Below are positions 9,544 to 64,000 of a DNA stretch of 64,000 bases, piece by piece. Source of the DNA: Marsupella aquatica (taxonomy: Eukaryota; Plantae; Marchantiophyta); contig OZ316896.1 in NCBI GenBank assembly GCA_973895155.1, positions 18,340,754 through 18,404,753 on the forward strand. Direction: 5' to 3'. The first letter of the stretch is position 1; every line of letters begins with the position of its first letter. Both the position numbers and the translations under genes were made by a program. Below the pieces are notes generated by a model. It saw nothing but the letters and a program-made list of their open reading frames with translations. It had not been told where the DNA came from and searched no databases.

Positions 9544-9550
9544 AGCTGCA

Positions 9551-21197: not shown

Positions 21198-21241
21198 TCG
21201 AGAGAGAGAGAGAGAAAGAGAGAGTGCGAGAGAGAGAGAGA
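21198..21241. repeat. (GA)n microsatellite in the probable 5' UTR of VIPP1
   Basis: GA run directly upstream of GCC ATG G at 21251. Confidence 0.9.
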
Positions 21242-21250
21242 ATTGCAGCC

Positions 21251-36350: not shown

Positions 36351-36409
36351 CAAGAGATATGAAGATTAAAATACTCAATAGTCATTCCAGACACCTATCA
36401 TAATTGTAG

Positions 36410-40400: not shown

Positions 40401-43400
40401 AAATTAGGGTAATCTTGGTTGTCATACTAGAGGTCAGAAGTACCAAATGACTGGAAATGTGGTCTTTACAAAGGCTATTGGGGGGTTCTCTTTGGAGGTA
40501 CAAGGGAGTTCATTGGATCATTTGTGAATTAAATGGTGCTTCAATCTGAGGACTAAACGTGGGGTCACTCACGCTGTCATATTGGAAGCCATTAATGTTG
40601 GCATATTGGAGGTCATATAGTCATGGGAAGGCTCACTTGTTAATGCTTTGGTGTAATGCTCTCAAAAACTCTTAGACAACATAGCCTCATATGTAGTCTT
40701 CCCTTGGTCCAAAAGGACCTTTTATATCGCGGGCATGATTTTTTATATATAACATTGGTCCTTAACATTCTTGTTGGCACCTACACAAACAGCCATGACC
40801 TTATGGGGGGGTTGCGACATTATAAGTTATTAACCTTGCCTTCCCTACTTAGGACCTTATGGGGGCGTCCGGACCTTGTTATTACCCTATATAGTCGGTA
40901 TTTCCCTAGGGCCTTATGGGGGCGAGGGGGGGGGGTGGTTTACATTGTTATTAATCTAGTCTCAACTTCCCTAGGGCCTTATGGGGGGTCCAGACATATG
41001 AGAGATTGTCAGAATAGAACCTAATTCATGACCCACGTACAATATCCACCATCCCCATCTGGAGAAATACCTTACTTTTACGGGGTTTAGGCATCCAGCT
41101 TTAGGTTTTTCCTCCTCAAGTGTTCTCGCGTACCAACAGGAGCCCTTTTTCCTGAAAAAACATCGACGGAGAGGGCAATGCTCGATGTGCTCTTTTCTTG
41201 GCATGCCTTGTGTGCACATTGCAAGGGCTTAGGGTTGCGCAGCGTTGTGCATTGCCTCCACCAAGCTTCGACACTCTTCCGAGCACATTTGCTAGACTAG
41301 CACAGGGTGGAGTTGCGGGAGGGGAGGAGCTGCAACACTCTTCCGCGCACAGGTTGGAGTTGCCCCAGGAGCACAGGTTGGAGTTGCGGGAGGGGAGGAG
41401 TTGCGTGAGGTTGGAGGTGCGGAAGGGAAGAGCTGCAGAAGGAAGAGCCGGACACAATCAGAAACAGTCGAGCGACAAGCTGCGGGTCACGAGCTGTGGG
41501 TGAGGAGCTACGATCGACAACAAGCTGCGCAAGGTGGATGCGGAAGGCATTTGCGCACTGGGGCCCCGATCATCATGGAAGGCGATTGCTATGGAAGCTC
41601 GTGGAGGCAGTGAAAGCAGGGAGGAAATGATTCTTGCTGCGGAAGGTCGACGATAGCTTCTTGAAGAGGTTGTGGAGTTTGCGGAAGGGAGCCGGTTGTT
41701 TGTTTGGTCTCAACATTTGTTTCTTTAAGTGGGTGCGAGCTGCTTGCGGAAGGGGAGAGGTGACCTGATTGCGGACGGGGAGAAGGCAAGCTGCTTGCGG
41801 AAGGGGAGAGGTCGAGCAGCTGCTTGCGAAAGGGGAGAGGGCGACTCATTGCGGAAGCTGAGAGTGCAAGCTACTTGCGGAAGGCAGCAGAGCACAAGCT
41901 GCTACCTGCAAGTTGAGGCCTGCTAGCTTCCGCCTCAAAGGTATTGACCTTATTCCCATTGGCGCCCATGCTGTGATTTGCCTGGTTGCTCTGTGCTCTC
42001 CACTTCCGGCTCCACCCCAGCCTGGGACCTGCAATGTGTTGTGTTGGGACCTGTGTTGCTGTGTGTCAAAGCTCTCTGCTTATGTTTTTTCTCTATCTAT
42101 CCCTCTCCATTCGCTACATGTTCTCTGATCTTCTATTCTATTGCCATTTACTACTTGTTCTTTGAGTTTGCTGAGTTTGGTTGTCCACCTTCTCGCCCTC
42201 TGTAGCCTTGAGAGGATTGCTCAATTTGTATGTGACCGCTCCTGTTGCATGCACTTATCTGCACTTACTTTTCAGACAATTTCTACTTTAAAGGACGTCT
42301 CTCTTTATTGTATATATCTCTCCTTTTCCATTTAAGACGGAACTGTCTCCACTACTGCTAGTCTCCCGGTTGAGCTTCTTTATTGCCCATTACAATCTAT
42401 ATCAATTTTTTTCCCACTCAGGTTCTCTGATCTTCAATTCTATTGCCATTTGCTACATGTTCTTTGAGTTTGTTGAGTTTGGTTGTCCACCTTCTCGCCC
42501 TCTATAGCCTTTGCATCACAAGTGCCTGCATTTCCTTCCCTGTCCCATGCTAGCTCCACTGCGGCCTTCCACTGCTATCTATGTTGATTCCTTCCACTGC
42601 TACAAAATTCTGCTTTGCAATGCCATCCCAATGCTCATATGTCCCAGTAAAATTCGGGTAGACATAAGTATTAGGCGCAGAGTCTTCTCTCTCTGCTTGC
42701 CCAAGATCAGGGTTTACTGGTTCTAATTGCTAATTCAGTCCCCATTTAGAATGACCTAAGAAATTTAACTATCTTCGAGCTTTATTGTTTGTTTTGGCAA
42801 AATCTTCCCTTGCGGCCAGCAGCTGAGGCAGCATCCACGATGTCCGATACATTTTTCAAGACATAGGTAAGCTGGCTGGGGAATGCCTTTCTCCTCAATC
42901 TCAAGAGATGATTTTTCTGGAGTCTGCTCACGTATTGCTCTTGCTTGTCCAGAACTTGAACGGCTATTTACCACAACTAAATCAAGTGCCCGAGTTCTGA
43001 CCGAGTTGTCCTCTGTCTCTCTGCTGTTGATTTCTGATTGCTACTTGTTGGATTTGTCTGCTATGTTCAGTTCAGTTTGTTGTCTTGTTGTCGTCTGGCA
43101 ATTATTGCCAATTATTCTGACTGCGTGAAAGGCTGTTCTATTTAGTGCTGCCTAATTGAACATAAAAATATGCTATTAAGTTGATTGAGTTAGGCAAATC
43201 AGGATGCCATACCCTTGTGTTCAAAATTCTATATCTGGCAGTGTTTGTTGTGTTTGTTGTGTTCAAAATTCTATTGGCAGTGTCAACCTAGAAAGATAAC
43301 CTGATGTATCGCCAACCTTTTCAGTGTGCTGCCAAAGTCCCTGTAGATGCCACTCCTTCTCTGTTTTAAATGAGTAAACTCCTTTCCTCCATATTGAAAT

Positions 43401-44624
43401 GTCATCCTGGACCTAAGCTGCGAGGAACTGCGAGGTGAGTCGTGACAATCTTTGTGGTGCAAGGTGAGCTTGATCTCTTATTATTACAATGTAGTCCTTA
43501 GTTTTCCATTGTATGATGTTTTCCTTAGTCTGTCTATGTTCCTCAATGAAAATTTGGTTTCCTTACTCTTCTTTTGACATCCCTCTGTATCATAGCCTTT
43601 TCTTTTCTCTTTTTTTTACTGAAGAGAAGTGCAGGCATGTATGGTGAATCCTCACTTGATTCCAGCAGCGACTCTGTAGAATTTTGTCGCCAAAAAGTTT
43701 CAAAGTTTTGTGTGTGGTTTGCCAACTGCTGTGCCACCTCAGAGAATTCCTTAGTGGCTTTTGTACAAGCCTTGCTCTTCAACTATGGTAATTTACAGCT
43801 AATTGTCTGATGTTCACACAACATCCATACACAGCAATGAATACAACTCCATGAATACAGCCACATGATTTCCTTTGGTCTGCAAACTGGACGAAACTAA
43901 ACTAAACTCAGCTTGGTCAATTTTAAATTCTTCGTAAGGGTCTCTGACAGCAGCCCGGTATAGTCATTTGTGCACGAAGATAGAGTACGGTGCAGCTTTT
44001 GAAAAAGTGGGTGGACCAGCAGCTTGTTGAGAGTAAAGCAACTTATGGTTCTATAACAGATGTGTGCAGTAGCTTAAGATGTAGAAGGCACACAATAAAA
44101 CTTGATTTTTACAGATTTAAAAAAGGGCAGGGTGAGTGAGCACTGCATGTTGAACTCACAGGTCCGAATCTTGATTTGATTTCACTGCTAAAATTCGTAT
44201 CTCTTGCCTGAGTCCCAGTTTGCTGGAGTTTTGTTGCTCTTTGTGCTTTGTTGTGCACATTGTTGTGTTTGCTTTGTCCATTTTAAAACTTGAGAGCCAA
44301 ATGAATGCTTTGCTGAAACTCAATTGCTATTTGTTCTGTGTTGCCCTTACAGATTTTAAAAAGGCAGGGTGAGTGAGCACTGCTGTACAGCAAGCGAAGG
44401 CATACAGGTTGCAATATTTGTGATTGCTTCCAATCATAGGCCAAGGTTATTTGCGCTGCTCAGTCCTAAATGCTTTGCCATCTATAAAGCATTGGTTTAT
44501 GCTGCACCCTTGTGGTTACATGTCATATTTTATGCTGCACCCTCATTCTTTTGTGTCATGCTGCACCCTGTTATATATTCCTTCTTGTTTCACAATCTGA
44601 TGTAGGGTCTGAGTGTGCAGGACC

Positions 44625-45279
44625 ATGGCTCGCAATAAGCAGAAGGCCATGAATCGTTGCAGAGGTGAATCCTCTCAAGCACCTCAATTGTCCTTATATT
44701 CAGACATTGAGATTAACCAGAATAGTCCACATGTATGTGCGATTTGTGATGAGGGATCTCATTGTTTGTGATGGGCCTTGCCACCGACATTTCCATAAGA
44801 ATGTTTCCTGTCCTTTGGGTCAACAATGGCTATGCCCAACTATATCCCTCGCTGATGGCCATGTTGGAGAATGGCTTTGTGTTGATTGCAAGAATGAGGA
44901 ACATTCTTGCTTTAAGTGCCATGTGTCTGGAAAAATTGGTGAAGAGGTAAGAAAATGTCCAGACTCTCTCTGTGCCCGGTTTTACTGTCGGCAGTGTTTG
45001 GTTCCTGGCACAGCATCATGTGGACTCCATATTTGTCTTACTTGTGGACAGGGGCCCAATGATGGGGCTAATGGCTTTTTGGTTCAGTGCATGAGGTGTC
45101 CTAAGGCATGGCACAAGGACTGCCTGCTGTTTATCCAACAGAGGGGATTTGCCCATGATCGAACAATTTGGGATCACTCAGCGCATGGGCAGCCCAAGAA
45201 GGGGATGTTTTACTGTCCTGACCATGACATTGACCCTACACTAGGCACTCCTACTAGGAGCCACATATCTTGGATTTGA
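44625..45279 (+). CDS. Stand-alone EDM2/NSD-like multi-PHD finger protein inside the CACTA element (frameshift in the G-run at ~44753-44755)
   Basis: The ATG at 44625 (accATGg) reads MARNKQK...HVCAICDEG, then shifts into DLIVCDGPCHRHFH...WLCVDCKNEEHSCFKC...CPDSLCARFYC...CGLHICLTC...CMRCPKAWHKDCL...MFYCPDHDIDPTLGTPTRSHISW. Confidence 0.85.
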
Positions 45280-45879
45280 TTGAGGCTGGATGGAACACAA
45301 ACTTGAGATAGAGCTTTTTGATGGTTTCACGTGGACTTAAACAATTTTCAGAGTGCTAAAACATGTGGACTATTTATATGCAGTTTGATGAACTCCTCAT
45401 GTATACACACTCTACGACAGTGCATTGCGGATTGAGGCAATTAATTTTGAGAAATCAACTTTATTATCTTTTCCAGGGTAGGATTCCGATTTTGAAGCAT
45501 GTGCTTTGAGTGTGACTTTCCTCCATATTGATGTCTAAACTTCACTTGTAAATTTGTCACTGGTGTCACAAACGTTACTTATTCCAGACCTGTCTACTCA
45601 CATTCCTAATAGGCAAACAAATACTGGAAATGATGAAGGCACAGAGATTTACGTTCATAGTATCATTCTGATGACACTGTATGTGATGCTCTATTTGTAT
45701 GCAAGAAGGAGAAGGTGCCCTACTATAGTGGATTTGAGAAACTGGGCTCTGTGGGTTTGAGCAATTGGACTGTGGTTGGCATCGGTTGTACAACTGTGAC
45801 GGTAGGCCCAATTTTGTATGCATGTCACTCTGATTCAGTTTGAAAATCATAGTTTGAATACAATTTCAATCAAGCTAGC

Positions 45880-48800
45880 ATGGCACAATTGCCACAGAAT
45901 ATGTTAGGTGTGGGTAGAACTCCAAAGTTGCCGCTCTTCCATCCAGCTAGAGTACAACATCGTGATGATGCTTTGTGGGTTCGAGAACAGAAGGCCTGCC
46001 ACAAGAGTGGGGACCATAAGATGTACTGCCCTTGTGTGAACTGCAAAGGGAATTATAGGACTAATCGGAATACTGCTAGACTGCACCTTATTAAACATGG
46101 TCGGTACCCTGCATGTCGAGTGTGGGTGGGAGAGGGACAGGACTCTTCTGATGAAGAGTGGGGTGCTGACTACATGTCACAACATGGCCCTGAGGCATTG
46201 AGGGTAGCAAACCTTCAGCAGGCAACCTGTGCACAACAGCCAACTGTAGATGTTGAAGAACATTTATTTGTAGATGTTCCAGAGTATCCAACTGTGGATG
46301 TTCAAGAACATCCAACTATAGATGTCGAAGAACATATCAGGGCTCTACTGGAAGAAACGTTGCTGAGAACCAATGAAGAATCCCCTGAGCATGAGCTAGA
46401 TGATCAGGACCGTTTTGACTTGGATTTTGTACTTGGGGATGATGAGAGTGAAGGAGGTGCCCATCCTGTAAACCCCCTTGAAACCTCCAAAACTCTTGTG
46501 GAGACTGATCCTGCACAGTTATCTTTAGATGCAGCAATGCAACCTTTGTTCCCAGGCAGCAAAATAGATGTTGTGTCATTCATGTTGCTTCTGCTGAACA
46601 TCTGTCATGGCCATGGATTCTCAAACAAAGGAGTGAATGCAATGTTGTCTTTGATGGGGGAGCATGGTATGCCTACAGAGCATAATCTGCCCAAGAACTT
46701 ATATGCTGCAAAGCAGTTATTGAGAAAGCTTGGCTTGGATTATGAGAGAATCCCTGTCTGTGAGAAAGGTTGTATGCTCTTTAGGGGTGAGAATGCCAAG
46801 TTAGAAAACTGTTCAGTGTGTCAGCAGCCCAAGATGAAGAGAGTGGGGAATTCATTACAGGCAAGGAAGGTAGTGCGGTATTTCCCTATAATTCCCAGGT
46901 TGAAGAGATTGTATGCCACTGCTGGTACATCTAAACTCATGACTTGGCATCATGAGAATAGAAGCACAGACAACATGGTTCGGCACGCAGCAGATTCAAA
47001 GGCTTGGAAGCATGTGGATACAAATATTGATCGGGAATTTGCAGCTGAACCAAGGAATGTGCGATTTGGGTTGGCACTTGATGGGGTGAATCCCTTTGGG
47101 AATAATTCCACAGCTTGGTCTACCTGGCCAATACTGTTGTTGAATTACAATTTACCTCCTTGGCTTACCACCAAGAAGTTCTTTGTCATGCTAGCTATGC
47201 TGATTCCAGGACCTGATTCAGTAACAGAGGAACAGCTAGACATAATATTGGGCCCATTCTATGAGGAGTTGGAGCTGTTGTGGAAGAAAGGAGTGCCCTG
47301 CTTTGACAAATTGCCACGCCCAGGATTGTCTCAACACTTCAACCTTAGGGCTGTGCTATTGTGGACAATCAATGATTACCCTGCATATGGTTTAATATCT
47401 GGACAACAACACTCTGGATACAAAGGATGTGTCATCTGTGGGCCAGAATGTGTGGCACGTGGTTCTAAGCACTTGCAGAAATTAGAGTACAGTGGCCACC
47501 GTCGATGGTTAGCAGCAAGGCATCTTTTTCGTAGACCAGATAGTGCACAATACTTTGATGGTGCAATTGAGAGTCGACCTGCACCGTGTAGAATGACAAG
47601 CTCTGATAGAAAGAAGTGGGGAGACGAGACAACAGAATATTTGAAGAAGGGAGGAACCAAGGTTGAGGATGAGAAATGCCCCATAAAGGTGCATGGAGTG
47701 AAGAGGGCTACTGGTCTGTACAAGTTGCCCTATTGGAATGTAAGACTCCATACTACTACAATGAATTTCTGCAATCTCTTCATATGACTTTGAAATATAT
47801 TCTCTTCATATACTTCCTGTAGCCCAGATTTTGTAATTGTTGTATTCAATGCACTAATTTCTGAATTGTGTCCACTGCACAAACTACTGCCCAGTGATGC
47901 CAAAAGTTGTATTCAATGCCCTAATTTCTGAATTGTGTGTCCACTGCAGAAACTACTCATTAACCATTGTCTAGATCCCATGCACTGTGAGAAGAATCTT
48001 GCACACAACATTGTGCACACTATCATTGGGACCAAGGACACTCCTTCTGTGAGAGAAGACATGAAGCTCTTACAGGTGCGCCAACACCTATGGCTTGTAC
48101 CCAATCCAGCTCCCAAGCGTAAGGATGACAAATTGTTGATGCCCCCAGCCCCATATTGCCTGAGCAAGAAGGAAAGAACAAGGTTCTTGGAGGTTTTATT
48201 GACCTTGAAAGGGCCCACTGGTTTTTCAAGTTCTTTGGCAAAGTGTGTTACAAAATCCAAGAAACTCTCTGGGTTGAAATCACATGATTTCCACCAACTC
48301 ATGCAACAGATTCTCCCTCTGGCAACAATGGGATTACTTGATGAAGGGGTTCGCTTGGCCATAGCTGGGGTGAGCAATATCTATCGCCAGATCTGTACGA
48401 AGGTGTGGGACCCTTCAATGTATGAGAATTTGATGATGGATGTTGCATTCACTCTCTGCATTTTGGAAATCCATTTTCCACCAAGCTTCTTTGATGTCAT
48501 GACCCATTTAATGATTCACCTAGTGGAGGAATTAGACTTGTGTGGCCCAGTTACAGGCAGATGGATGTACCCAATAGAGAGGAACCTGAAGGTATTGAAG
48601 GGTTATGTACGAAACAAGGCACGTCCAGAGGCTTCTATGGCTGAAGGCTATGTATTAGATGAGTCTTTGGGATTTCTTTCTGAATACATGATTGATGCAA
48701 AGGGAGAGGGAAAACGAACCTGGGAGTTGGAGGAGGATGCTGGCGTTGCAGGCATTGTTTTGGAAGGGGCTGCAAAGGCGATAACTTTGGATTGGTCTGA

Positions 48801-49848
48801 AATGATGGTCATGCATCATTATATATTAGAGAATGAAGAGACAGTGGCTCCATGGTATAGGTACATAAACCTAGAAACTCTCCTATCCTTAGGCATATGG
48901 ATCATAATTATGTTTCCCCATTGTGTTTGTATATTCATGGTGGATCGTGCACTAATGTCTTCAGTGTTGTTGTTGCCATGCAGGATATATGATGCTACCA
49001 ATGAGACTGTTACCAAACGAAGAGTGGATTTCCGGAAGGAGTGGATGAGGAAGCCTGCCAATCGAAGAAAACCAGTGGAATTTCCCGTAGACTGCCAAGA
49101 ATTGCCACCTTTCAGGGAATGGTTTCAAACATTAGTCAATACCCATAATTTTGAGAAAGAGTCTGAGCGGTCATTACTATCTGCATACTCCACACCACCT
49201 AGTTTGAAGGCACGACTGTATAGGGCATGTAGAGCCTATGGGCACCATTGGAGGACTATTCCATCCTTGGGGTGTTTGAGTGATTGTGATTCTGGTGCTT
49301 TCAGCACTTTTGATTCTGGGATGGCTTCTACATTCACTGAGAAGCGAGTGGACAGGTCTGGTGCAACCATAGAAGAATCTGTACAGTATGTAGGGGCCTT
49401 GACAGATATCTTGGTACTGAATTATGGCAGCTTGAGGAAAGAGGTGATTCTTTTCAAAGGGAAATGGGCAGATCCATCATGGACTCCTAAATCCTCTGCC
49501 AGTATGAGGTATACCAAGTCTGGTCTTTGGCAGGTGAATTTCCATAGAGAACTGGGTGTGTCCAAGAAAATGGATTACGTTTTCCCAAAGCAAGTGGAGC
49601 AGGTTTTCTTCCACCCCAATGAGAAGGGGATAGCATGGAGAACAATCCTCCACAAAGAATCCAGGTCCACAAGGGTGTTAGGTGATTACACAGACGTTGA
49701 TTTCCATGCTACAATGGAAAACAATGCCAAATTACACATCGAATTGGCTAAGGCCTGTAGGTCCAGAGAAAATCCAGGACCAAGTACTGGTCCCAAACGA
49801 GGCAGAGATGCAGAGGGATCTGCAAGAAAGGGCAGGCCTAAGCAGTGA
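45880..49848 (+). CDS. CACTA TnpD/Tnp2 transposase. Exons 45880-47739, 47950-48860, 48984-49848
   Basis: YCPCVNC..HLIKHG, C-x2-GC..C-x2-C, YFPIIPRLKRLY, HAADSKAW, LALDGVNPF, TINDYPAY, LDPMHCEKN, GLKSHDFH, HLMIHL, WMYPIER, QVEQVFF. Phase-compatible GT-AG introns and no internal stops. Confidence 0.95.
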
Positions 49849-49946
49849 ATAGGTTTTAGCTAGGTGTGTGAAGTCCATAGATGGACTACATGTATGGACT
49901 ATTTATGAAATCAGACTAATGGTTTACCCATTTGTGCAGTTGGTGA

Positions 49947-52900
49947 ATGCAGCCTGTGAAAGGAAGATTGCAAGGGTTGTCACATTCTGTGAATCCTTAT
50001 GAGGAGGCCCGAAATCGGAACATAGAGCATAATGTCAGAATTATGCGTGATCTAGGACTGGGGCCAAACTGCAAGCTGATGTGTGTGTTGATATGTCTAT
50101 TGCAAATTTGATTCAGTAGATGGAGTTGTCAGGTTCATGTTCTGTTTTCATATTCCAGATTGGTCTCATACTAGTATGGATCCTGTACATAAGTACTAGT
50201 GTTACGGTGTTGTAGATTCATTTTGCATGTATGTTTGATCTGCATTGGTGTATGTTGATGATTGCTTTGTTCCTTAGAGGCCCAACCACACATGTACAAC
50301 GAGAGAGAGGAAAGCCTGCTTTGGTGAAAGGTACTTCAACTGAAACATTGCCAAAGAGGAGGAGCTCTAGACTATCAGAAGTTACCAAGGTGAACATGGC
50401 AGAGTTTGGTGATGATGGCTATGGTTCTCCTTCTGAGTATGACACTGAGGATTCTGACATTGGAGGGTCAGAACCAGAGAGTGCACAACAGGTAATGCTT
50501 GAACTTCATCATCCTAATAGGAAGGGATCCTTGTCCCTTTTTCAAATTATATGTTGATATGCTTACGTTGTCCATGATGTAGGTACAAAAACAAAATCGT
50601 GGTCCTAAGAAGACTGGGCCTGGTGGAGGTGGGCTAGTGAGATGTTGGAAAGACCCAGACACTGGACTCTTATATGAAAGTGAGTGGATTGTACTGTTCT
50701 ACTTTTCAGGTGTGTTTGGAAGTTGATATTCTACTTGGAAATGAAATTAATTGAAGTGCTTTGGTGTTGTGTGTTTGTTTAGTGGTTCCATCAGCATCTG
50801 AAGGCAGATCAGGTCAATCTGATGTACTACATTCCAGAGGATCTTCAGGTAATACACAATCTGCTCGTCATGCATATGCAAGTACATTTGCTCAACTTTT
50901 CAATCATGTACATATTTTTTGATTGAATGCATGTGTGAGCATTGCAGGAGGGGCCTCTGAGATGCGCAGGGAACGAAGGCATGCTAAGAAGCAGTTTGAT
51001 AATACTGCCAAACAACGAAGGGATTGCGGAGAGGTGCCCAAACACATTAAAGTGAGTATTGTACTTGTTTGTAGATTAAGACAAATCTGATCCTCTCTGT
51101 TGTTGTGTGTATAAAACCTGGACTCTGCATAAATTCCAGAGTTATGATCTGACATTGTCTGTGAAATGCAGATTTATGACAATGATATTGATGATTCTGA
51201 TGGCAACAAACAATACTGGCTGGAGGAACTTCGTGGCAACGTACTCAGAGTCTTTGATGTATCAAAGCCAAAATGGACTGATCATCCACAAGTTCATACA
51301 ACCACAGTGTGGAATAACATGGCAGCTGAGTGGGAGTATGTGGGTGGGGAATTTATTAACACCAAATTCCAGAGTCATTGTCGTGGCATATTGAAGAGAG
51401 AGCGCCATAAAATGCATGTTTATTGGAAGAAAGTTTGCAATGAGGATCCAACCAAACTTGGGCCATCTGGTGTTGATCCAAAGAAATGGGCAGCTTTGGT
51501 ATCTCATTTTACCAGTCCAGCATTGATATCTTTGAGTAAACAGATGACTGATAAAAGAGCACGAGTGCAAGATACCTCTCACTTTGGAAGGGGAGGGCAT
51601 GCTGCAGCAGCAAAGAGAATGGTAAATTGTCTATCATTTTCACTATCAATTCTGTCTTGTTTGTGAATCTTGATGAAAACAAACTCTGTGATTTCTCATT
51701 CATTGTGTGTTTGAACAGAAGCAGAAGAGAGGATCAAGCCCAGGTATATCTGACCTGAAAGAAAACCATGGTAGTCAGGGTTCATTGCCAAAGGTGACAA
51801 TGAGCCCATCATTGGCAAGTGCAGAAGGTCAGACTGGTAGTTTTGTGGGAGCAAAGGTGAGCCCATCATTGGCAAGTGGGGAGGGTAAAAGTGCTAGCTT
51901 ACTGGGGCAAGGAAACAGACATGGATCAGCTGTGAGTATTGTCATACCAATTTGATTTGTACATCATTCTCCATTTGACAGAGCCAGTTTTGTGTCGTTT
52001 GTAAGTTTGACAGTGAGACTGTTGTGTTGGTTTGTGGTTCATTTACAGACCCCACATTCAAAAGAAGAGATCACTGCCATTGGGGCTGTGAAATTGGATG
52101 TCGCTGAGTTGAAAGGCACTGTGAGGGAGTTGACAAACATGATGACTATGTGGATGGCACATCACCCCAGTAATGCACAAGTTCCAACAGTTGTGCCTAG
52201 TCACAGTAAGTTGACTACAACTACCAAACAAGGTAGTAGAAAGCGATCTCTTACTTTTTCAGGCGATAATGAAGGTAAAATTCTCTATCATGTATACACT
52301 GTCCATTCAATGTAATTATTGTGATGTGTATATGTCATTGCATGTTTATAATGTTCTTGCATGTTTTTAGTGTGATTATATGTTGCTGGTGTATACATGT
52401 TTGTTTATGCATTTCTTTTGTGTGTGTTTTATGACAGCATCTTTAGGGGAGCCTCCTGTGTCGCAGGGAAGACCAACTGACACAGCTAACAGTACTCTAA
52501 AGCAAACTGAATTGGAAGTGAACCTTTTGCCATCTAAGTTGCCCAAAGAAGCCATTTCAGATGTCTTTCAGTTGCCAGAGGATAAGTCGACTCAGTTGAC
52601 ACCAGATGTAACCCCAGAATCATCTGAGTTGCCAAAAGAAACTCCCATTCCAAGTGAACAGGATGACACTCCATCAACTAGAAAGGGAAAGAAGAAAAGG
52701 AAGAAAGGATCCTCAGCAAATGCATCACCTGCACAGAAGAAACCAATGCAGTCTCCTAACCCCGTTGCAAAGGTAAATGTGTGTTTGATTTGAGTGTTCT
52801 TCTATCTTTCAATTTTTGTTTATTGCATTTTTAACAAAATGTGTTGTTCACAGTTTGCAAGAGGAGATTTGGTGAAGATGAAGAGCGTTGTGGACAATTC

Positions 52901-53114
52901 CATGATAGTGGCAGAAGGTGAGGTGACAGGGCTGCCAGGAGAAGATAAGTTTCATTGTGCAGATTTTGAAAGCCCTTTCTTGCGAGTGCGTGTGATTGAA
53001 GTGTTTGTAGATGTGGCATTGCCATTTGCCAATTCAGGGGAGAACCAGTCTAAATTATCTGATGTGAAAGGGATGAATGCCCTATGGAACTCTAGATTGC
53101 TTAAGAAGCAATAG
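49947..53114 (+). CDS. CACTA TnpA-like multi-exon gene (exact exon structure not resolved)
   Basis: A chain of short open exons with GT/AG boundaries: YEEARNRNIEHN..LGL, PSGVDPKKWAALVSHF...NKRAR-like/HFGRGG, and a C-terminal VAEGEV...KFH...RVRV...LPF...ALW domain typical of EnSpm ORF2 products. Confidence 0.7.
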
Positions 53115-53464
53115 AAATAGCACTCTATCAAGAAACAATAGACATGATAGAATGACAACTCTGTTTTTCTATAAACATGCAGAGTGATTGGTATGTCAGG
53201 TTGTAACAATTGACAATCTAATATTATTGATGTCAATGTAATTTTGTTTCATAAATTTGCATTGAGTTCAATATTTACCATGAGACTTATGAAGGTATCT
53301 TGTATGAATATCAATTGGATTTGTGATATATATCGAATGTTTCTTTAAGTTTTCATTTAGCAACTCTATTGAATGGCTTTGTAATATATGATTTTTGATT
53401 GACATCAAGTTTTATCTATCATGATCACTTAAATTTGAATTTCTCCAAATCATTGAATACTTCG

Positions 53465-54198
53465 TCTGAATGACTGGCTTGAATGACTAAATGACTGGCT
53501 AGAATGACTGATGTAATGGTCATTATTCACAACTATCTTTGTGACCAATATGACTCAACTCTGGTCATTAAAGACATAGACTAAATGATTCAAAGAATGA
53601 CATATACAATGACCTTTCTCATGGTCATTATAAACAAGTCCACTATGACTCACTTTATGTCATTCAAGACATGTCATTAATGACTAATGCGTATCTTTAC
53701 GTGTCTTCTCCCAATTGAACCACGTGTCTCAATATGACTTGTTTATACTATAGTCATTTTGGACACGTCCAAAATGACCCAAATATATTGCCAAATGGTG
53801 AATCCTCTTTGAACCACGTGTCACTATTTGATTTGTTATATAATGTACGTCATTTTGGACAAGTCCAAAATGACCAATGTTATTTGTTTTTTTATTGCCA
53901 CGTGTCATTGTGTGATTGGGTATGGGGACCATCGACGGTCAACGGCAATTGACCGTCGATGGTGATTTGTGTCGTCATTTTGGACCGTTCAACATTTATG
54001 ACCATATCATAAAAATGGTCATTTAGGATAGTATGAAATGACCACATGTTTTTAGCGTCATTTGTCCAAAAGGACCGTGACCAAAATGTCCGTTGTGACG
54101 TGTCTGGAAAGACGAGAACAATTGCGTCATTGTTTTGTTAAAAAGACCTGATTAATAGTCATTGTTTCGGTCATAAAATACATTGTTTTCTACTAGTG
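53465..54198. repeat. Right subterminal repeats and palindromes of the CACTA element
   Basis: AATGAC/GTCATT clusters. Palindromes gtcattttggacacgtccaaaatgac and accatcgacggtcaa..ttgaccgtcgatggt. Confidence 0.88.
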
Positions 54199-57100
54199 TT
54201 AGAACAAAGTCACTAACAACATTAGAGATGAGAAGCCTTTGCCCACCACAAATCAACAATACTAGCCCCGACTACCCATTATTTGAACGTGAATAGCAAA
54301 GAGTACAATAAAGTGTTATCAAAATTAATATATTCTCTATTCATATTCTTTGAAGGTTAATGAAATGATAAAAAAACCCATCATTTTAACAGGCATTTTA
54401 ATAGTCATATATAATATACCATTCTCCTTTGTATGCAGATACCTCTTTCTATTCACATATGTTTGCGGTGGGGCCAATTATAACAAAAAAACTTGCATGT
54501 GTCAGTTTAAATAGACATGATTTTTTCCCATGCACGTGAGTCTTTCCATGCACATGATGGCCATGAGTTGCTGTCTAGAAGCTTCACTCTAGACCTAGGC
54601 TCTTAAAAGTAAACTTTACTTGGCGTTTTTATAGTAAGATATTGCTCCTGGCAACCTATGTTGAATTGCCAATTGCCCACCATATAACTAATAAAATAAC
54701 CCTACCATTTTTTGTTGCACATACGTGATGTGAAAATTTTGTGGAACAGGAACCTTGCACACACACACACCTATCCTCCACACCCCTTAGACGGGTGTGA
54801 CGAGCGGATTGAACCTTGGACTTAGTACACAGAGTTGAAAAAAACATTAAAGAAATCCATCTTAATTTTCCTGCGCATGCCCTTTTTGCAACAGGTCAAA
54901 AATTATTTGTGATCCAATTGCATTACTTACTATTGTAATTTTGGAAGATGAATGGTTAGGTCTAATCACTTTTTTTTTCTAACCCAAGAAGTAATGTAGC
55001 TCTAACCAAAGCCCTGACCAAATCAGATTAACTATCTATGCATTTCTATACACCTAACAATAGAACTTTGAACTAGGTAGGAATGGGAACAAGGCTTATA
55101 CATATAGACAGAGCAAATTAAATCCTACAACTAGGAGCATCGCACCCACCTGTTCTCAAATAGCTTAAATATCCAAGATGATAGCTAGCCAGAACATACC
55201 ATAACCCACAGAATGACCAAATTTTTCCTAAATTCTGAACGTCTTAGTTTGCTTTCCCTCATGGTTATCCCATTGAATTGAAACTGCTATTATCACCAAT
55301 TTGTACACGAAAGTTGGTACATAATGAATAGTAGCATAAGTCTCGAAATGATAAAAATTGATATTAAAATGATCATATCTTTTTTCGCATGTGGTGTCAG
55401 TGACACTTTTGTGAAAGTGACCCCAAAGAAGAAAACCAAACTGTATATAAATGACAAAAACATTTAAAGTTTCTTTCAGCCAGTCTTTCAGTCCATATGA
55501 AAATGTAAACTCCTGCCTATTATACTAGAATTACACTTGGAATTACATACACGAGCAAATATATTGTTGGAACTCTCAAATTATTCTCATTCTGTAGACT
55601 CAATTTGCAAATGAAAATAGAATAGATTGGCTCTTGTATTTCTTTCTATATCCCCGATCATATATCACTTGAACAATTTGTTGTTAGTCTTTGGTTCCTC
55701 TCTTCTCGATCAAGGTATATTGATGTTTGGTCTCAATCTCATACTTGAGTTTTTCTCCTAGACCAATGAACTTAAAATTGAAGCACTATAATTATTAACA
55801 AACCAAGAAGACCCAATTGGTGGTCTAAATAAAACACATTAAAGTTAGAGTATATAACAGCTTGGGAGGTTGTCGCAAGTCAGCATGAAATAGCACAGCA
55901 ATGTCTGAGCATGTGAATCATTCAAGCTAGTTGTGTCTGAATTATAGTAAGAGCTGTTAAAACTAGCAAACTAAAAATAACCCTGCAAGCAACTTGATAT
56001 TGATTCAACGTACGTACACTAACATTTCAAAATGGTTGGATAATGCATGCATATATGGAGCACATATATTCATTTTTGTGATAATAATTTTTGTGATGGT
56101 TTGTAATTACTTTTACAACTCAAATTTCTTATATAGTATTAATTATATAAGACTCTGCAACAATTTGTGTTTCTTAAAAAAACAGAAATATTTTTTGAGT
56201 GCACAAAAAATACAATATTTCCCATCACAGAGAACTGAAAAACTCTGTTTGATTTCAGCACAATTTAAAGTAATTTCTTACTATCCTATACTAAAACTTA
56301 TGCTCACAAAAAAGAATTACCATCATTCATTTTAAAGCCCACAAAGGCATGACTTTGTGGTAGCTCACTTGAGTAGAGACTGATAGGTCTTGGGTTCAAC
56401 TATTGTGGGCTGACTCTTCCCAACTATTGTGGGGTTTCACAAATTTCCCTTAAAAATTTTTAAAAAAAAAAATACACATTACACAATCTTTGTTCTATGT
56501 TACCCACATTGAAGTAACAATCTTTGATAGTTAGTTTGGAAATCAAGTCCTATATTACTATTTATAATCATATTATTTTTTGCATCATGATAAAATTTAA
56601 TATATTCTTACTTTTATTGTAATAGGATATTTTTTAATTACAAATTCATTGAAAACATGATGTGATTGTCGTATTTTAGAACTACAAATGCTACAACAAT
56701 TTTGTAGAATATTGTGTGAGAGATTCATTGCACTTTTTTGGTTAGTAGCCAATTCATGTCTCGGGCCTGAGGCTCTGACCCATTTTACAAAAGAGAATAA
56801 TAATGCTCAACTTTAGCAAACTGTTCAAACCTATATAGTTTAGCTACAGGTCTCTTCATCCATAATAATCTTTTGAAATTATCACTATATTCATTAAAAC
56901 TGTACTTTTAAAAGTCCATAAGATGAACCCTAAAGTTATTTTTGTTCAGGCCAAATTTCTATTAAAGCATTCCCAAAAGCTAATTTTTTTCAGCCCAAAT
57001 ATACACTTTTGAATGCCCAAAATTTTGTTTTTTTTCACCCAAATGTTTAATAATAACTTAAATCATATATTATAATTAATTTAAAAATTAGAGTAATTTA

Positions 57101-57349
57101 ATTTAGTCCAAAAATCAGAGGCCAATACCACTCAGACCATCTATAAATTAAAAAATATAGATGGTCATAAATCAAGGGTCAAAATGAGATTGACCCACTA
57201 TATAATTATTAATTGTCCAGTCCAGTGAGAGAGCCTCACACTAAGCATATATCCTAATTATTTACTTTATCCTACATGTTCAAAACATATCCTTTCAAGA
57301 CATAATATGAATGTACAATTCAGGGTAGGCACTAGAGCAACCCTATCTC

Positions 57350-58406
57350 CTAATGATCAAGACAAAACTCATTTGAACAAGAAAGTCTGCTTCCTGATTT
57401 ATCATAGCGGATATCACGGTTGCAAGTATCTCTCGCATGGTGGTTCTTAAACTTATTGGTGAGATCCCTAGTTCTGAGAACTTTCCAAATAAAATGCCTT
57501 CTATTTTGTGTATGAGGACCAGAATAGTTGTCTCCAAGTATTACGTTTGCAGTTTCTTCGATCTCATCCATGGTCCACGTCTCCAGTGGTGGGTAATGCT
57601 GCACCTCGTTCTTTCCGTCCCAAGGAATCTCTTCAGGAGTCACATCCAAGATGGTTCCAAACTCCCTATGGATACAACGACAATCTCCCCACTTCTGTTC
57701 CAAAAGAGCATAGATGGCAGCATGATCCTCCTTGCTTGTTAATAAATTGAAAACAGACCACTTTGGATTGTTGACAGTGATATAATGTTGAACGCAGTAA
57801 GCCTTTCTCAATTTGCAAAGATACGGCCATAATATCTCGGGCAAAAAGGTGTCATTTGAAGCTGTGTGAGTAAATGGATTGGGAAACAATCCATTCACGT
57901 CATAATTCAAAAATGCCTTCAATGGAGAATCATCAATAAGAACTGTATTAGAAGCATCATATTTTTTCTGGAAAACGGTCCCAAATGGTTTGCAAATTCT
58001 TCAGAAGTAAATTGGCCTTCCCATCTGTTATATCTGGCCTTTGGATGCAACTATCAAAGGTATCTTCTTGAGTAAAGACAAACTTGAACTTCTGTCGCTC
58101 CTCCTTAGTGAAAATCAACTCCATTAAGTCCATTGTTTTTGGCCTCCTTGCACAGGTCCAAATTGTGACGTCAAAAACCATGAAAGCTGCATATAGAAAT
58201 TCGTGGAGGTATGGGCGCTCCACATACATGAAATTAAACCCTCCACGTCTCCCCCAGTGCACACCACGTAAACTTGTCTGATTTCGCCATGGTCCTGAGC
58301 TTCTGGTCTTAATGCAATCCCAACAAATCTTGTTAAGGTCAAGAACCAAGAGCTTTCGCCGGATCGGAGAGTGTAGTATTGGAGTGAATTCTGGAAACAT
58401 TAACAT
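57350..58406 (-). CDS. FCP1/SCP (NIF)-type HAD phosphatase-like protein, 1-nt frameshift in the A6 run at 57962-57967
   Basis: KLLVLDLNKIC, ERPYLHEFL, VTIWT, KNLQTIW. Removing one A continues as KYDASNTVLIDDSPLKAFLN into ORF 57350-57922. Confidence 0.8.
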
Positions 58407-58744
58407 AAGCCCTTAGTCAATGCGACTCAAAGTTTAAACAATTACTACGGAGGAAAACTCTCAAAATTTGAAATCAAACAAACTTTGTTATAGCATTTGA
58501 AGTAGAGAGGAACGACCTTGGGGCGACCCTCCTAGAAAAACATTAATTACATTCAATTGCCATTTTTTAGATCCAAAGTATACCTGGGTCAAACCCTTCC
58601 TCCAGAGCAACGCTTTCCGAGGGAATGCCAACAAAATCCTTTGAGGAAGGAGATTCTACGACGAAACTTTGGTCTGTAAAAAAGTATATTATTACAAAGA
58701 TAAAGCTTAGATTGTCATTAAAATACCAAGAACCAAAGAATGGG

Positions 58745-61700
58745 CTAATAATTTTCAATGCTAAAATGCCCAAATTCATCTATTGTTTGATCACCTAGAA
58801 CACTCTGTATCTCGGAATTGATACCACTGGGAAGTTGCTCTTCAAAGGATGGGGGTGCAAAAACTGGGCTCAGTCTCAAGTTCAGTTTTTTGTAATCTGA
58901 TTTTGCCATTATCTTTGGAGCATCGTCTAGTGATTCTATCATTCCAACCTTTGGTCCATTTCTCCATATAAAATGAGTTGCAGGACGGACTGTTTTCATA
59001 TATCCAGTCCTGCCGATCTCGGATCCAGAATTTTGTGAAAATGATAATACTACGGGGCTTCCTGTAGAAGCACTTGTAAAAACCAATTTAGTCTCTGATG
59101 AGCAATATAGAGGAGACAGGGGAGGATTTGAAGCACCTGCCTTCTCTTCTTCATTTGCAGCGGTCTCAGGTACTTGACGATCATCCTCCTTTGCAAGCGC
59201 AATGTCTGACATTTCTCCCAATTCTACTACGTCAATATTGCCTAGACCATCTGCGGTTGCCTTCCAATGTGCGTCCGATGTGGACGATGTAAGATCTGGG
59301 TCCGATTGGTGCATCCAATTCTCTACACCGGCAAAGGGATTTCTTGGTGGGTCGCCCTCAGGTCGACCCACAACATCAGCCAACCCCACACCAAAGTAGG
59401 GAATACCTACCACTTGTGTTCCACGTTCATCCAAATTTTGGGTGACCCTGTCGTCTATGTCGTGACCCAATTCTCCTTCCTCAATATCATCTTCGCCCTG
59501 GTCTACGCCTTCTTTGGCACCAACATGCGCGGAAACCCCATCGCGGGCTCTACCAAATTTGGAACCGCCCATCCGGTCACTCATTATGGAAGGAACTTTC
59601 TCGCAGAGAACCCTTCCATATGCCTGAGTGAAATCATATTCATCCTCAGTGTCTGAATACGCAAAGCATTCTCTGAAACACAACAATGACACCTTCATAA
59701 CCTGTCCTCCCGAGAAAAAGTCAAGTATAGTCTCCCCTTCAGCCGAAAAAAATTCAATAATACTCTACAGCATACATTTTGGCTTAGCGTGAATATTCAC
59801 AAAGCCACCTCTACTTCCCACCATCTCAAACATGGGAGCCTTTCGTAAGAAATCTCCAATGTGAAATGCCGAAGTTGACTCAGTCTCTGTCTCCTTACTT
59901 GTCTTACTCTTATTCTTATCTCGCTTCTCCGTCTTGTCTTCCACTTGGAAATCAGGGTCGATCGCCGAATTGTAAGAAAATTGGCAATTAAATCCAGGCC
60001 TGAACACTTGCTTCCAATCAAATTTCTCCTCAGTGGTGATTCCTGCAAAGATTATCTCCTCCATACCACAACTGAAAAGTAAGCCCTCTGGAACTGGTGT
60101 ATCACTCCGTCGATAGCTCCCGTAGTCGACGTGGATGTCCATTCCCTTTTCATGTTGCAATTTCCTAAGGGCACTCAAAATGTTTGCAGCAAGTGGCCTC
60201 GGATGCACAGTCATGACAACAACAATTGTTGGATTTCTTGGAAGATCCACAATGTATTGCAGTAATGCAATAATTTCAGCATCGGTCCAAACATGTTGTC
60301 GGAGCCTACTAAAGTCAACAATGGCAAGAGGACACAAAGGCGAAGGCTCTTGTAGCATTTCCGGCACGGTCGTCTTCATCAAATTCTCACTAAAAAATGT
60401 CAAGAAAGGCTCCGTGCGAGAACGACCAATCCCACCAAATTCTTTACAATACAACCCATCTAGTCTGACCATCAGACTTTGTGGGAAACTCTCCTTGACC
60501 ACATTCTTCTTCAATGAATTGTTGAGGTAAACCTCACCCGCTGCTCTCCTCAATTTTGTCATCTCAAGCTCAGATTTCAAGGAAGGCAACAATATCACCA
60601 GAGACTCCCAAGATGTGCCAACAGGAAACTTCTCACGATACTTTTCCACGAAATAGCCAATAATGATTGTTCTCAATTTGGACATTATCTTGATTGTAAG
60701 GGCCAAGTCTCCCATTGCGACAAGCTCTGATTTGTTGGTGATATCCTTCTTCAGCAAGACACGCTCCTCTTCAACGTTCTTCAAGATCTCAATTATCTGT
60801 TTGCTACTAATCTCTCCTTCAAAGCATCGAAAGGTACCGGGAGTGATCAATTTTGGGGGTCTTGGCCCTCCATACCCACCAGCCCCGTCTTGGAGCTTCC
60901 CACTCAACCATTTTGCACACACGTTCCGCCATAATTCAAAGAGCTCATCTTTGGCAAAAAGTAACCAATAAATGCTCTTTAGGCTTGACTTCCCCATTGT
61001 AACCTTTGCCAGGGCAAACCAATCCTGCATATCCAATGGACTTGACATTAGTTTCAGGGTACAATGCATATGTTAGAAAATTTATACCTATGTTTGAAAC
61101 AGGCTAAGCCGCCTCGCCCCAAGGGCGTGGCGAACCTCTACATCTAACCGCAATTGACTGAAACGGAACTAGGGAATTATTCTTAGAGAGACTAGTCTAG
61201 GTTGCCTCGCCCTGAGGGCGAGGCAAACATTTGCTTTAATCTTCTAACCAAGGAAAACAAGAAAAGGCAGCCTCGCCCTTGGGGCGAGGCAAACCTCTAC
61301 CATTGACAATCTTTAAACAAAGCGGATCAAGAATAGTTTGCGTTGCTCCAACATGTACCTGATAGTTTTTCCTGTCTGTATTTTGATTGGTCCCAATCCC
61401 TGGACGCGACGGTTTCCCGCACTCCTCAAATTGCCTTCGTGCATGAACAATAGTCTCTAAAAAACAAGACTTAAATTGCATAGTATCATTGACAGCATTC
61501 GATAAACTTAAATGCTCAACCACAATTGTCTTCGGAGTGAGGTCAGATAGGATCCTTGCTTTCCTATACTTTAGTTTGTTGGCAAGATCTGTCAGCTTGG
61601 CGTCAGTCTCGGCCCACCCTTGGATCCATTGGGCAGCTCTTGCAGAATGCTGGCCACTGATGGCAAGGAATTGGATCTCATGCTTCTTCACACCAATCAA

Positions 61701-63763
61701 AAACTCTTTCCTATCCTGAGGTGTGTTGTCATAATGAAGCAACTGTTTAGTGCTCTCGCGATACGGAATCAAATCAGCAACTTGTGGTTCCTGTCCAGGG
61801 TTTTTCATCATAGACTTTGATATCTCCATTGCATGCGATGCGAAAGATTGAACATTCGATATACAAAAACGGCCGATGGCGGATTAATACTTTTTACAGG
61901 AATATCAAAAACTTCGCGGATGCCAAAAGTATAATACTGCTCAATATTACGCAAAACCTCTTGGCCTTTGAGCACATCATCTTCTTTGGGTCCTTTTGTC
62001 GGACACATATCATCCTCTGGATGCAAGACAAAGTTTGAAGTCGACCCTGACATTGGTTTTGATTTCGCAACCTTTGCCTTCTTTGTCTGCTTTTTTTGGG
62101 GGCCCTCATTATCTTCATTTTTTTTAGCCATCTTCTTATGGCGTGAACTCCCAGATTGTTTCTCTTGTTGAACAACCGGCTCTTGAAGCTTTCGTTTCTT
62201 CTCTGTCTTTGATTGCGCACTTCTTTCCACTGTCTTCTTTCTCTCCTTTGCCTTATGCTTTGCTTCTTTTTTCTTCATCTCTGAAATCCACGTCCGGCAC
62301 GCGGCCTCTTGAAACTCTGGACAAAAAATGAAACTCTTGTCGATTGCTTGCTTGTATGAAAAATGTGCCTTATCAATCATCCTTTGAACTATCCAAGTAG
62401 ACGGAGGGTCCACACTGTCCGCATTGTCATGCATGTGCTTCTTTACGTAGAGAAATCCAAACACTAGGTCAACTCCACTTATTTGAGAACGCGTCTTCTC
62501 AAACATCTGATCAATTGTTACTCCATCTGGGAAGAATCCCATATCAGCTACGCTTATCTCCAATCGAGCCATCCACTCAACATTCAGTAAAGTCGAGTAG
62601 AGTTTTATTGGCACTAGAAGTCTCATCCACTGAGATTTCTCATTGGACTCAACAATAATCGTTGCATTGCGGTTGTTGTCCGTGTTCACAAGGACGACTA
62701 GACCTAGAGTAACAATTGTCTTGCGGTCATTCAATTGACTTGTGAGGCCCTTGAAACAAATCAAGAGACTGTCTTCCGCCGACACCCCAACTTCTAGTGC
62801 CCATCTAAATCCTGGAGTATCTTGGTCAGGGAAAACAAAGTCCTTGATATCCTCGTCCATAATATTTAACTCCGGCTTCTCAAGATTTTTTCCTGGTAAG
62901 AAACATTGAAAACAAAATGGTCAGCATCATATTTTTAACATTGACATGTGGAAAACTTTCAAGGTGCCTTGCCCTTGGGGCGAGGCGACAAATAGAAGAT
63001 TGCAAAATCTTCTTTGCTCCTAGTGCAATTAGCCCTGCCACCTCATCCAAGAAATCAAACATTATTTAGGAATGCAGACGACATCGCCTCGCCCCAAGGG
63101 CGAGGCAACTTCTAGGAAAGCAAACAACATTTAGGAATGCAGAAAACATCGCCTCGCCCCAAGGGCGAGGCAACTTCTGGAAAGCAGACAACATTTAGGA
63201 ATGCAGAGGACATCGCCTCGCCCCAAGGGCGAGGCAACTTCTGGGAAAGCAGACAACATTTAGGAATGTAGAGGACATCGCCTCGCCCCAAGGGCGAGGC
63301 AACTTCTGGGAATGCAGACTACATTTGAGGAATGCAGACGACATCGCCTCGCCCCAAGAGCGAGGCAAAAAATAGAATATAGCTAAAGATCCTTTATTAA
63401 TGTAAGATACAAGGTCCAATACGCCTTCGGAGCAACAAGAAATCTAGAATGAAGTAGACGTCGCCTCGACCTTGGGGCGAGGCGACTGCAAAGGAATATA
63501 GAAATTTTCCTAATAAGAAGTTTGAAATCCAAATTAAAGTAAAGTTGCCTCGCCCTAAGGGCGAGGCAAGAAGTTGAAGCAGGTGGTGCCTTACGTGGAA
63601 AAGTTAACTGGGCTTTCTTTGACGCCTCCAACGCATTGTTAACCAATTTTTGGACATCCGGGTCTTCAGGGTCATATTCATACAGAGAGTTATAATTGAA
63701 GTTCAATGACTCTTGAGAACTGGCGGAGGTGGTGGAAGCTTCAGAACTGGAGGAAGTAGACAT
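58745..63763 (-). pseudogene. Disrupted ~1325-aa gene: ParB/Srx-like domain plus beta-class N4C/N6A DNA methyltransferase-like domain. Exons 63763-63595, 62892-61359, 61024-58745
   Basis: Both introns are GT-AG and phase-compatible. A 5-bp duplication (61833-61842) and one in-frame TAG (59765-59767) are the only lesions seen. FDIPVKSINPP..YR...FLAISGQHS is ParB/Srx-like. HAKPKCML*SIIEFFSAEGETILDFFSGG resembles MTase motifs X/I (KP..L..II..S..G..VLDPFxGxG). Confidence 0.65.
63065..63368. repeat. ~65-bp tandem array x5, each unit carrying the hairpin GCCTCGCCC-caa-GGGCGAGGC (one stem mismatch in the last copy)
   Basis: Stems start at 63086, 63151, 63215, 63280 and 63346. Dispersed copies near 61110, 61204, 61269, 62966, 63463 and 63547. 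Confidence 0.95.
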
Positions 63764-64000
63764 TGTAAGGGGCGAGTGAGATTTAAGATGACACATGGCA
63801 GCAATGGAGAATGCCATAGGCTGCAAGAGGGCACTAACAGGCAAACAATGATCGAGGGAGCGACCCAAAAGGGAAGGGAGCAAGGCGGAAATAAAAGCCT
63901 TAGAGCGAGGCGGAAAACAAATCCCAAGAGCGAGGCAAAAACAGAAGCCCTAGAGCGAGGCAAGAGGGAGGCAAGGAGTGAGGAGACGAGAGAGGAGGCA

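Follow-up and report, generated by a model that had tools for sequence, protein, structure and literature searches.

What does a plant mobile element gain from a gene that joins a ParB-like segment to a methyltransferase-like one? We addressed this question at a locus of the liverwort Marsupella aquatica (GenBank assembly GCA_973895155.1, contig OZ316896.1, positions 18,340,754 to 18,404,753 of the forward strand), a stretch of 64,000 nucleotides (nt) that we call the window and number from its first letter. The gene lies on the minus strand at 58745-63763, and the original prediction had taken it for a possible DNA-modification module carried by a large mobile element. We find here a broken member of a plant mobile-element gene family with many copies, sister copies of which lack the breaks. 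The explanation that we favor, though we put it just short of an even chance, is that the element encodes a self-targeting DNA-binding protein, built from prokaryotic parts, that likely counters silencing without catalysis.

The gene had been reassembled from five open reading frame (ORF) pieces into three exons with only two lesions, a model that splice reconstruction from the sequence confirms. Its exons, joined across GT..AG introns, give a spliced total of 3,983 nt, which is 1,326 codons (stop counted) plus 5 nt. The first lesion is a doubled pentamer, TCGCA, and the second is a TAG at codon 986. All of the segments originally pointed out are found in the reassembled translation, namely the Lys-rich tract, the ParB/Srx-like letters IPVKSINPP..YR..AISGQHS, LAIVDFSR and KP..L*SII..S..G.TILDFFSGG; the raw window pieces of the gene had zero matches in Pfam. 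The parts of the gene are as follows.

63595..63763, minus strand: exon 1 (sequence alone)
62893..63594, minus strand: intron 1, 702 nt, holding eight palindromes of 21 bp; a 65-bp tandem array at 63064-63368 accounts for five of these
61359..62892, minus strand: exon 2, with a conserved N-terminal domain, the Lys-rich tract (~62272-62057) and the ParB-like domain
61418..61936, minus strand: likely ParB/DUF3723-type domain, ISGQHS box at ~61658-61641, interrupted by the 5-nt duplication (61843-61834)
61025..61358, minus strand: intron 2, 334 nt, which holds three of the palindromes (61111, 61204, 61270)
58745..61024, minus strand: exon 3, with a helical region, the methyltransferase-fold domain, an acidic spacer and a conserved C-terminal domain
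59582..60412, minus strand: predicted beta-class amino-methyltransferase fold with the motif IV position before motif I, from AlphaFold2, Foldseek, VIA and profile searches
60305..60316, minus strand: motif IV position, D-F-S-R replacing (D/N/S)PP(Y/F/W); model strand 233-237 ends at D237
59765..59767, minus strand: in-frame TAG private to the window copy, a C-to-T type change in CHG context
59705..59722, minus strand: motif I, DFFSGG; M.RsrI has one residue more, DFFAGSG, in the profile alignment
58748..59110, minus strand: conserved C-terminal domain of unknown fold, ending L.PVF..P..Q..N.EIQS.LG...IDEFG in the alignment

Intron 2 has a phase-0 counterpart in a related metagenome contig (L001) and is backed by Calypogeia proteins that read across it. 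It is further supported by a relative, P0178, whose ParB box and both methyltransferase motifs lie within a single uninterrupted ORF of 1,009 amino acids (aa). For exon 1 and intron 1 (phases 1 and 2) the support comes from sequence only, and two in-frame ATGs lie further upstream.

Is the window copy representative of its family? Contigs from all four of the public runs used here (at most four samples, from three studies, X1 possibly being the source sample) lack both lesions, so lesion-free sister copies do exist. At position 59767 the alternative letter holds 480/480, 7910/7910, 122476/122625 and 37.5/37.5 of the depth in the four runs. At 61833 none of the depth in X1, X2 or X5 carries the extra five letters, and about half of that in X3 omits them as well. 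Single X1 contigs cover 57337-64000 at a depth of 421-515, compared with 13.8-14.6 in unique flanks (about 30-fold over the gene), and in X4 the element reaches a depth of 3,732, compared with 25 in unique flanks. Contig depths, a rough guide, point to tens or more of near-identical copies. An X1 contig of depth 421 crosses position 64000, and the element therefore extends beyond the window. This, the repeat depth and a sharp left end (see below) uphold the claim that the gene is cargo of a large mobile element running past the window.

We next consider whether the protein is a DNA methyltransferase. An AlphaFold2 model of 61024-59570, made from 12 alignment rows with the stop read as X, has a mean predicted local distance difference test score (pLDDT) of 71.9. 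In a VIA search this model matches CcrM (Z 15.5, root-mean-square deviation 3.5, 197 aligned), M.RsrI (Z 14.5) and the rotifer N4CMT (Z 13.5), with unrelated folds scoring about 6 in the same search. Foldseek with the methyltransferase-region model finds M.MboIIA (E 1.1e-6), the profile search finds M.RsrI (E 1.2e-6), and the Atlas model of a relative also points to beta-class amino-methyltransferases. The C-terminal half is thus predicted to fold as a beta-class amino-methyltransferase in which motif IV precedes motif I, and the proposed likeness to beta-class N4C/N6A methyltransferases is borne out at the level of fold.

The beta-class scaffold is present, but the protein departs from the canonical enzymes at motif IV. 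In a register taken from topology and alignment ranges, the motif IV Asp is retained in 45/49 aligned rows (near-duplicates included), with D-F-[STGA]-R dominant. PP(Y/F/W) at this position occurs in 0/49 rows, and (D/N/S)PP(Y/F/W) occurs nowhere in the protein in 0/179 family members. The original prediction had noted LAIVDFSR where DPPY was expected; the motif is indeed absent, as a trait of the family, and we rejected its loss by decay of the window copy since the loss is family-wide. Elsewhere in the fold, the D-F-F-S-G-G columns are 84-94% conserved (64-65 rows) and a Lys (K414) is kept in 64/65 rows; the column expected for the motif II acid, which we take to be the ribose-binding one, holds mostly S or A. 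The S-adenosylmethionine (SAM) loop is shortened across the family and, in the register of the M.RsrI alignment, has none of the Ser/Thr residues with which N4CMT holds the carboxylate of the cofactor (PMC10406627). In the rotifer enzyme, changing SPPY to APPA abolishes activity (PMC8885841). Because the catalytic motif is missing from all 49 rows and the SAM loop is shortened family-wide, the liverwort protein is not of the Marchantia DN4MT1 type and probably writes no DNA mark, so that a working DNA-modification module of the DN4MT1 or N4CMT kind is unsupported.

One might instead suppose an active, non-canonical amino-methyltransferase, in which D-F-S-R would stand in for DPPY (the Asp retained and the Arg stacked on the base), with the ParB-like domain directing N4-methylcytosine (4mC) or N6-methyladenine (6mA) to the DNA of the element. 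The complete fold is preserved together with the Asp, Lys and DFFSGG columns, the nearest predicted structures include viral ParB-methylase fusions, and 4mC exists in liverworts (bioRxiv 10.1101/2021.02.12.428880). We nevertheless consider such an enzyme unlikely, given that the PP and the aromatic fourth residue are missing throughout the aligned rows, that a residue is missing from the SAM loop, along with the carboxylate-binding Ser/Thr, and that the motif II acid column is mostly S or A.

The middle domain likely has a ParB-type fold, as judged from models of relatives. Residues 90-300 of the Riccia relative P0127 have an Atlas feature score of 0.95 to DUF3723 and a structural template modeling score of 0.50-0.56 to ParB_N clusters, in a low-confidence model (pLDDT 0.47). 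Pfam DndB is matched at E 0.03-0.05 in two of seven relatives, and the helical part weakly matches the DNA-binding domain of KorB (Z 3.5-3.6); in Foldseek and VIA searches with the ParB region, sulfiredoxin, ParB and KorB appear among weak rows only. In intact relatives the reading frame runs on past the site of the 5-nt duplication, and conservation is seen in the SGQHS box, in a strand with R-x-R-I-L and in a pair of Asn residues; the box and the downstream Asn pair would correspond to the GxxR and EN boxes of ParB. The ParB/Srx-like assignment first made for this segment thus finds weaker support than the methyltransferase fold, in the DUF3723 and ParB_N matches of a relative, while the window model itself gives no clear fold match. 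Pfam DUF3723 was not matched by sequence in the family proteins scanned. DUF3723 is a conserved gene of unknown function in Starships (bioRxiv 10.1101/2021.12.13.472469, 10.1101/2025.02.28.640899).

If the protein binds DNA, candidate sites lie within its own gene. The two introns contain eleven 21-bp CG-containing palindromes, GCCTCGCCC-N3-GGGCGAGGC, with 8-9/9 arm positions matching, and three palindrome half-sites are found upstream of the gene. Half-sites number 22 in the element and 0 in the exons, which make up 71% of the element, and 3 in the other 56.9 kb. The element thus has dense motif arrays in its non-coding parts, as do elements with VANC-type proteins. The five palindromes that share the 65-bp tandem array are not independent copies, and the array varies between copies of the element, as X1 and X3 contigs skip 62995-63348. 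The palindrome is absent from IMG/VR. These sites had been overlooked in the original prediction, as had the left end of the element and a linked FCP1-like gene (see below). Separately, a plus-strand CTRR occurs no more than 10 nt after four of the tandem palindromes (63086-63310), like repeated Helitron 3' signals.

Has the element escaped methylation? The ratio of observed to expected CpG is 0.63 in the element, 0.31 in a neighboring CACTA element and 0.72 in 1-35000. At codon junctions the ratio is 0.72 in exon 3 and 0.51 in exon 2, 0.31 and 0.78 in the pieces of the adjacent NIF/FCP1-like gene, and 0.10 and 0.14 in the CACTA transposase. Read from base composition, this retention fits a long-term escape of the element from CG methylation.

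We therefore favor, as stated above, a protein that would act on its own element. A predicted nuclear protein would join a likely ParB-type domain to a methyltransferase fold without a catalytic motif, bind the CG-containing palindromes in the introns of the element and so shield the element from host CG methylation. ParB and KorB dimers load at two-fold symmetric sites; a dimer of the liverwort protein would load on the palindromes in the same way and then possibly spread, with the dead methyltransferase fold gripping or occluding target cytosines. A link to transcription by RNA polymerase II (Pol II) might run through the FCP1-like partner and the C-terminal motif; this is the weakest step. 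A more far-reaching version would have one transposon family across the liverworts run a bacterial-style ParB/parS clamp in plant chromatin, loading at its intronic palindromes and spreading, with 5-methylcytosine blocked by occlusion or by 4mC/6mA written through D-F-S-R, and with an AFF4-like tail and the FCP1-like protein co-opting Pol II elongation control. We consider this version unlikely.

Several observations weigh against a self-targeting protein that protects its element. The AlphaFold2 model of the window ParB region (13 rows) is poor, with pLDDT mostly below 60 there and a best VIA Z of 4.8, and scans of this region against PDB profiles, PHROGs and NCBIfam, as well as hhalign to P1 ParB, for which 67 near-identical viral loci were left aside, gave no match. 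The strong conservation of D237, K414 and DFFSGG fits a pocket that still binds SAM, and SAM binding or a non-canonical activity is conceivable. The palindromes could be transposase binding sites or Helitron 3' hairpins, and their pattern was not seen in the sequence of the L001 locus, which has one 109-nt intron and was given no formal scan. The CpG contrast uses one comparator element and could be explained by a younger family or by horizontal arrival; the retention is also uneven, with the low value of exon 2 and that of the first NIF piece, which has few sites. Finally, of the differences between the window copy and the run contigs 40 were listed, with 515 more beyond these, and we used the 21 that lie within the element and at which nearly all X1 depth differs (11 were dropped as outside the element and 8 as lacking or in the minority in X1). 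Of the chosen private differences, 13/21 are of the C-to-T type, the TAG stop codon among them, and 10/13 of these fall in CG or CHG contexts, compared with 27% expected (P 2e-4). By this footprint the window copy decayed as methylated DNA does, and protection, if real, would be incomplete.

The same domain and sites could also serve transposition or maintenance without affecting silencing: the ParB-like domain, clamped on parS-like palindromes, would hold the excised or circular DNA of the element, condense it or segregate it. Such a role has been guessed for DUF3723 in Starships, the closest feature match of the domain, and the weak KorB matches of the helical part would suit it. This account leaves the CpG retention and the FCP1-like partner unexplained, and the palindromes seen all cluster at the promoter and introns of one gene; we regard it as improbable, if worth keeping in mind.

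The partner gene lies downstream.

57350..58412, minus strand: NIF/FCP1-like haloacid dehalogenase (HAD) phosphatase gene, motif I DLNKI, with a 1-nt frameshift at ~57962 (Pfam NIF, E 2.5e-8 and 1.2e-4)

This frameshift is missing from most of the depth in all four runs. In two Riccia gene models a full NIF/FCP1 domain is fused downstream of the methyltransferase-like part, and a third stops within the start of NIF. Because these gene models join the same domain to the methyltransferase-like part, we consider the phosphatase-like gene a conserved partner. The NIF domain of FCP1/SCP proteins is present; the catalytic motif of FCP1/SCP C-terminal domain phosphatases, DxDx(T/V), is replaced by DLNKI in the window gene and by DVEGL in two Riccia proteins. 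At the end of the methyltransferase-fold protein, the C-terminal motif pattern is found in 27 family proteins, near-duplicates included. In a side observation, this motif (58769-58873, minus strand) marginally resembles an N-terminal AFF4 segment of solved structures (E 0.088), which may be a chance match; the segment is presumably the cyclin T1-binding site. The likeness is unsupported by Pfam, which gave no useful match for the C-terminal domain, and the conserved N-terminal domain has no match among PDB profiles. Mimicry of AFF4 is possible on these letters, and together with the FCP1-like neighbor the motif hints at control of Pol II elongation.

How widely is the family distributed? A profile search returned 176 clusters (50% identity, E up to 0.001). 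We looked up 30 proteins by cluster, and 12 clusters carry organism names, 2 of Calypogeia fissa and 10 of Riccia sorocarpa; four further matches are from Calypogeia, and relatives are spread over many scaffolds in both species. The order of ParB box, methyltransferase fold and FCP1 domain recurs in both liverwort classes, and most copies lack all three lesions of the two genes, which suggests that gene function is under selection. The genes might instead be neutral passengers that the element took up on one occasion and has since multiplied, without any role for it. Helitrons and CACTA elements do capture host fragments (PMC10741241), and many database relatives of the family are fragments. 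The majority of copies are lesion-free in both genes, Calypogeia and Riccia keep the same order and motifs in spite of low identity, and no single-copy host source is evident among the named matches, all of which makes passengers a poor prospect.

In other collections, the JGI metagenomes hold one relative, a single-protein pattern search of prokaryote genomes found none, and no sequence relative occurs in IMG/VR or in 50,697 phage records. That last result also counts against an endogenous giant virus region in place of a transposon. Pandoravirus and phage methylases do appear among the fold matches, but the spliceosomal introns of the gene and the sharp, transposon-like repeat end leave this idea barely credible. 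Five more divergent relatives (P0123, P0130, P0150, P0161 and P0166) differ, where they align, in the residues that follow the Asp of motif IV (DTTS, DATT, DLHG), and they may carry the family beyond liverworts.

Which class of element carries these genes? The shared sequence begins at A56881, with unlike flanks before 56881 in at least 11 contigs from the four runs; unlike flanks begin before 56880 in at least five contigs and before 56879 in at least four. Among the junctions listed, beyond which there are 28 further rows, none lies at 56882-56883. The depth jump falls in the bin 56870-56896. The boundary at 56881/2 reads A|TCACTATATTC, and its A is invariant. The features of the element outside the two genes are as follows.

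56881..56899, plus strand: left end of the element, the invariant A and then TCACTATATTCATT, with a Helitron-like 5' A|TC; CACTA starts at 56883
56938..57047, plus strand: five subterminal units with a 22-nt period and a ..CCCAAAT core
63878..63961, no strand assigned: tandem units upstream of the gene, containing three GCGAGGC half-sites; the element runs past the window edge

A host A followed by TC is the 5' signature of Helitrons (PMC10741241) and is found at A56881. The hallmarks of CACTA/CMC elements, a CACTA terminus and subterminal repeats, are found as well. In all junctions listed AT precedes CACTA, which is unexpected for the variable 3-bp target-site duplication of CACTA elements. 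Several contigs match the first 32-47 nt only and then diverge, a pattern consistent with a second end or with sister families, and the terminus has no second copy within the window. The transposase and the opposite end fall outside the window, and the RepHel gene, 3' hairpin and CTRR|T end of a Helitron would lie beyond 64000. On balance a Helitron is somewhat favored. A CACTA-like element with an AT target keeps a minority chance, owing to the CACTA at 56883, the 22-nt units and the contigs that share only the first nucleotides, and an element of some other class is a fainter prospect.

Taken with systems already described, the family belongs to a known category, transposon-borne chromatin accessory genes. 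We found no published description of the family itself in the literature searched, which did not extend to most subscription papers or to Repbase, and the available part of the supplement of Iyer et al. 2016 (PMC4738411) has 0 occurrences of 'Marchantia' and 'DUF3723'. With CcrM, M.RsrI, M.MboIIA and M.PvuII (Pfam N6_N4_Mtase) the protein shares a predicted fold and the order of motifs, and its KP..DFF segment aligns with M.RsrI; it differs from beta-class enzymes in having no (D/N/S)PP(Y/F/W), a shortened SAM loop, 12-18% identity and a 1,325-aa, intron-containing gene. MpDN4MT1a/b and rotifer N4CMT likewise represent a prokaryote-type beta-class fold in a eukaryote, DN4MT1 also in a liverwort. 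These are host genes with TSPPY (Marchantia DN4MT1; bioRxiv 10.1101/2021.02.12.428880) or SPPY and demonstrated activity, whereas the present family is carried by an element in many copies and shows the motif in none of 179 proteins; DN4MT1 is set apart here by its published description. The family would be a second, separate lineage of the beta-class methyltransferase fold in the plant group from which 4mC is described.

Phage ParB-methyltransferase fusions at ParB-terminase loci have the same order, in which a ParB-like domain precedes the fold of an amino-methyltransferase (Iyer et al. 2016, PMC4738411). Descent from such a fusion is not established, since the ParB-like part is nearer to eukaryotic DUF3723 and no phage sequence relative was detected. 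DUF3723 is, like the liverwort gene, conserved cargo of a large mobile element, although Starships differ in element end and in host. The match would link this unexplained Starship gene to the ParB fold and to mobile elements outside fungi.

The closest parallel in mode of action would be VANC of the Arabidopsis VANDAL elements, likewise an element-encoded protein with arrays of short motifs in introns and upstream that undergo tandem gain and loss (PMC5735166). No homology is known between the two, and the liverwort motif is a 21-bp palindrome and a candidate site only, if a defined and directly testable one. Sequence-specific anti-silencing in plant transposons is best known from VANC; the liverwort family, if our explanation is true, would be an independent solution made of prokaryote-type parts. 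DNA-modification folds are also transposon-borne in the case of TET/JBP genes in fungal DNA transposons, Helitrons included (PMC12730594), and of the methyltransferase domains of DIRS1 retrotransposons, described as likely inactive (PMC4738411). These belong to another enzyme class or methyltransferase group and to other hosts, and they have no ParB-like domain.

The neighboring CACTA element spans 35435-54198 in full, flanked by a TTA duplication, and 2.7 kb separate its end from the element described here; we therefore ruled out that the gene is its cargo. It measures 18.8 kb and has CACTAG ends, a Tnp2 at 45853-49848, 83-bp and ~577-bp subterminal arrays, and an NSD-like PHD-finger ORF at 44653-45279, possibly chromatin-reader cargo. 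Two short repeats of very high depth, at 54260-54620 and 56337-56430, have many unlike flanks in all runs and are probably small non-autonomous elements.

Elsewhere in the window, tyrosine-recombinase-like ORFs on the minus strand at 11048-12417 (Phage_integrase E 0.002, DUF3504 E 0.1) perhaps mark a Crypton-like element. Two intronless, CpG-rich ORFs, one glucanase-like (2417-3394, plus strand; SKN1/KRE6 E 4e-7) and one for a nitroreductase (8866-9663, minus strand; E 3e-26), look microbial and may be horizontal acquisitions or a sign of mixed assembly. A PspA/VIPP1 gene, which supports a plant host, is present on the plus strand at 20972-22393 as a single ORF with a plastid-transit-like N-terminus.

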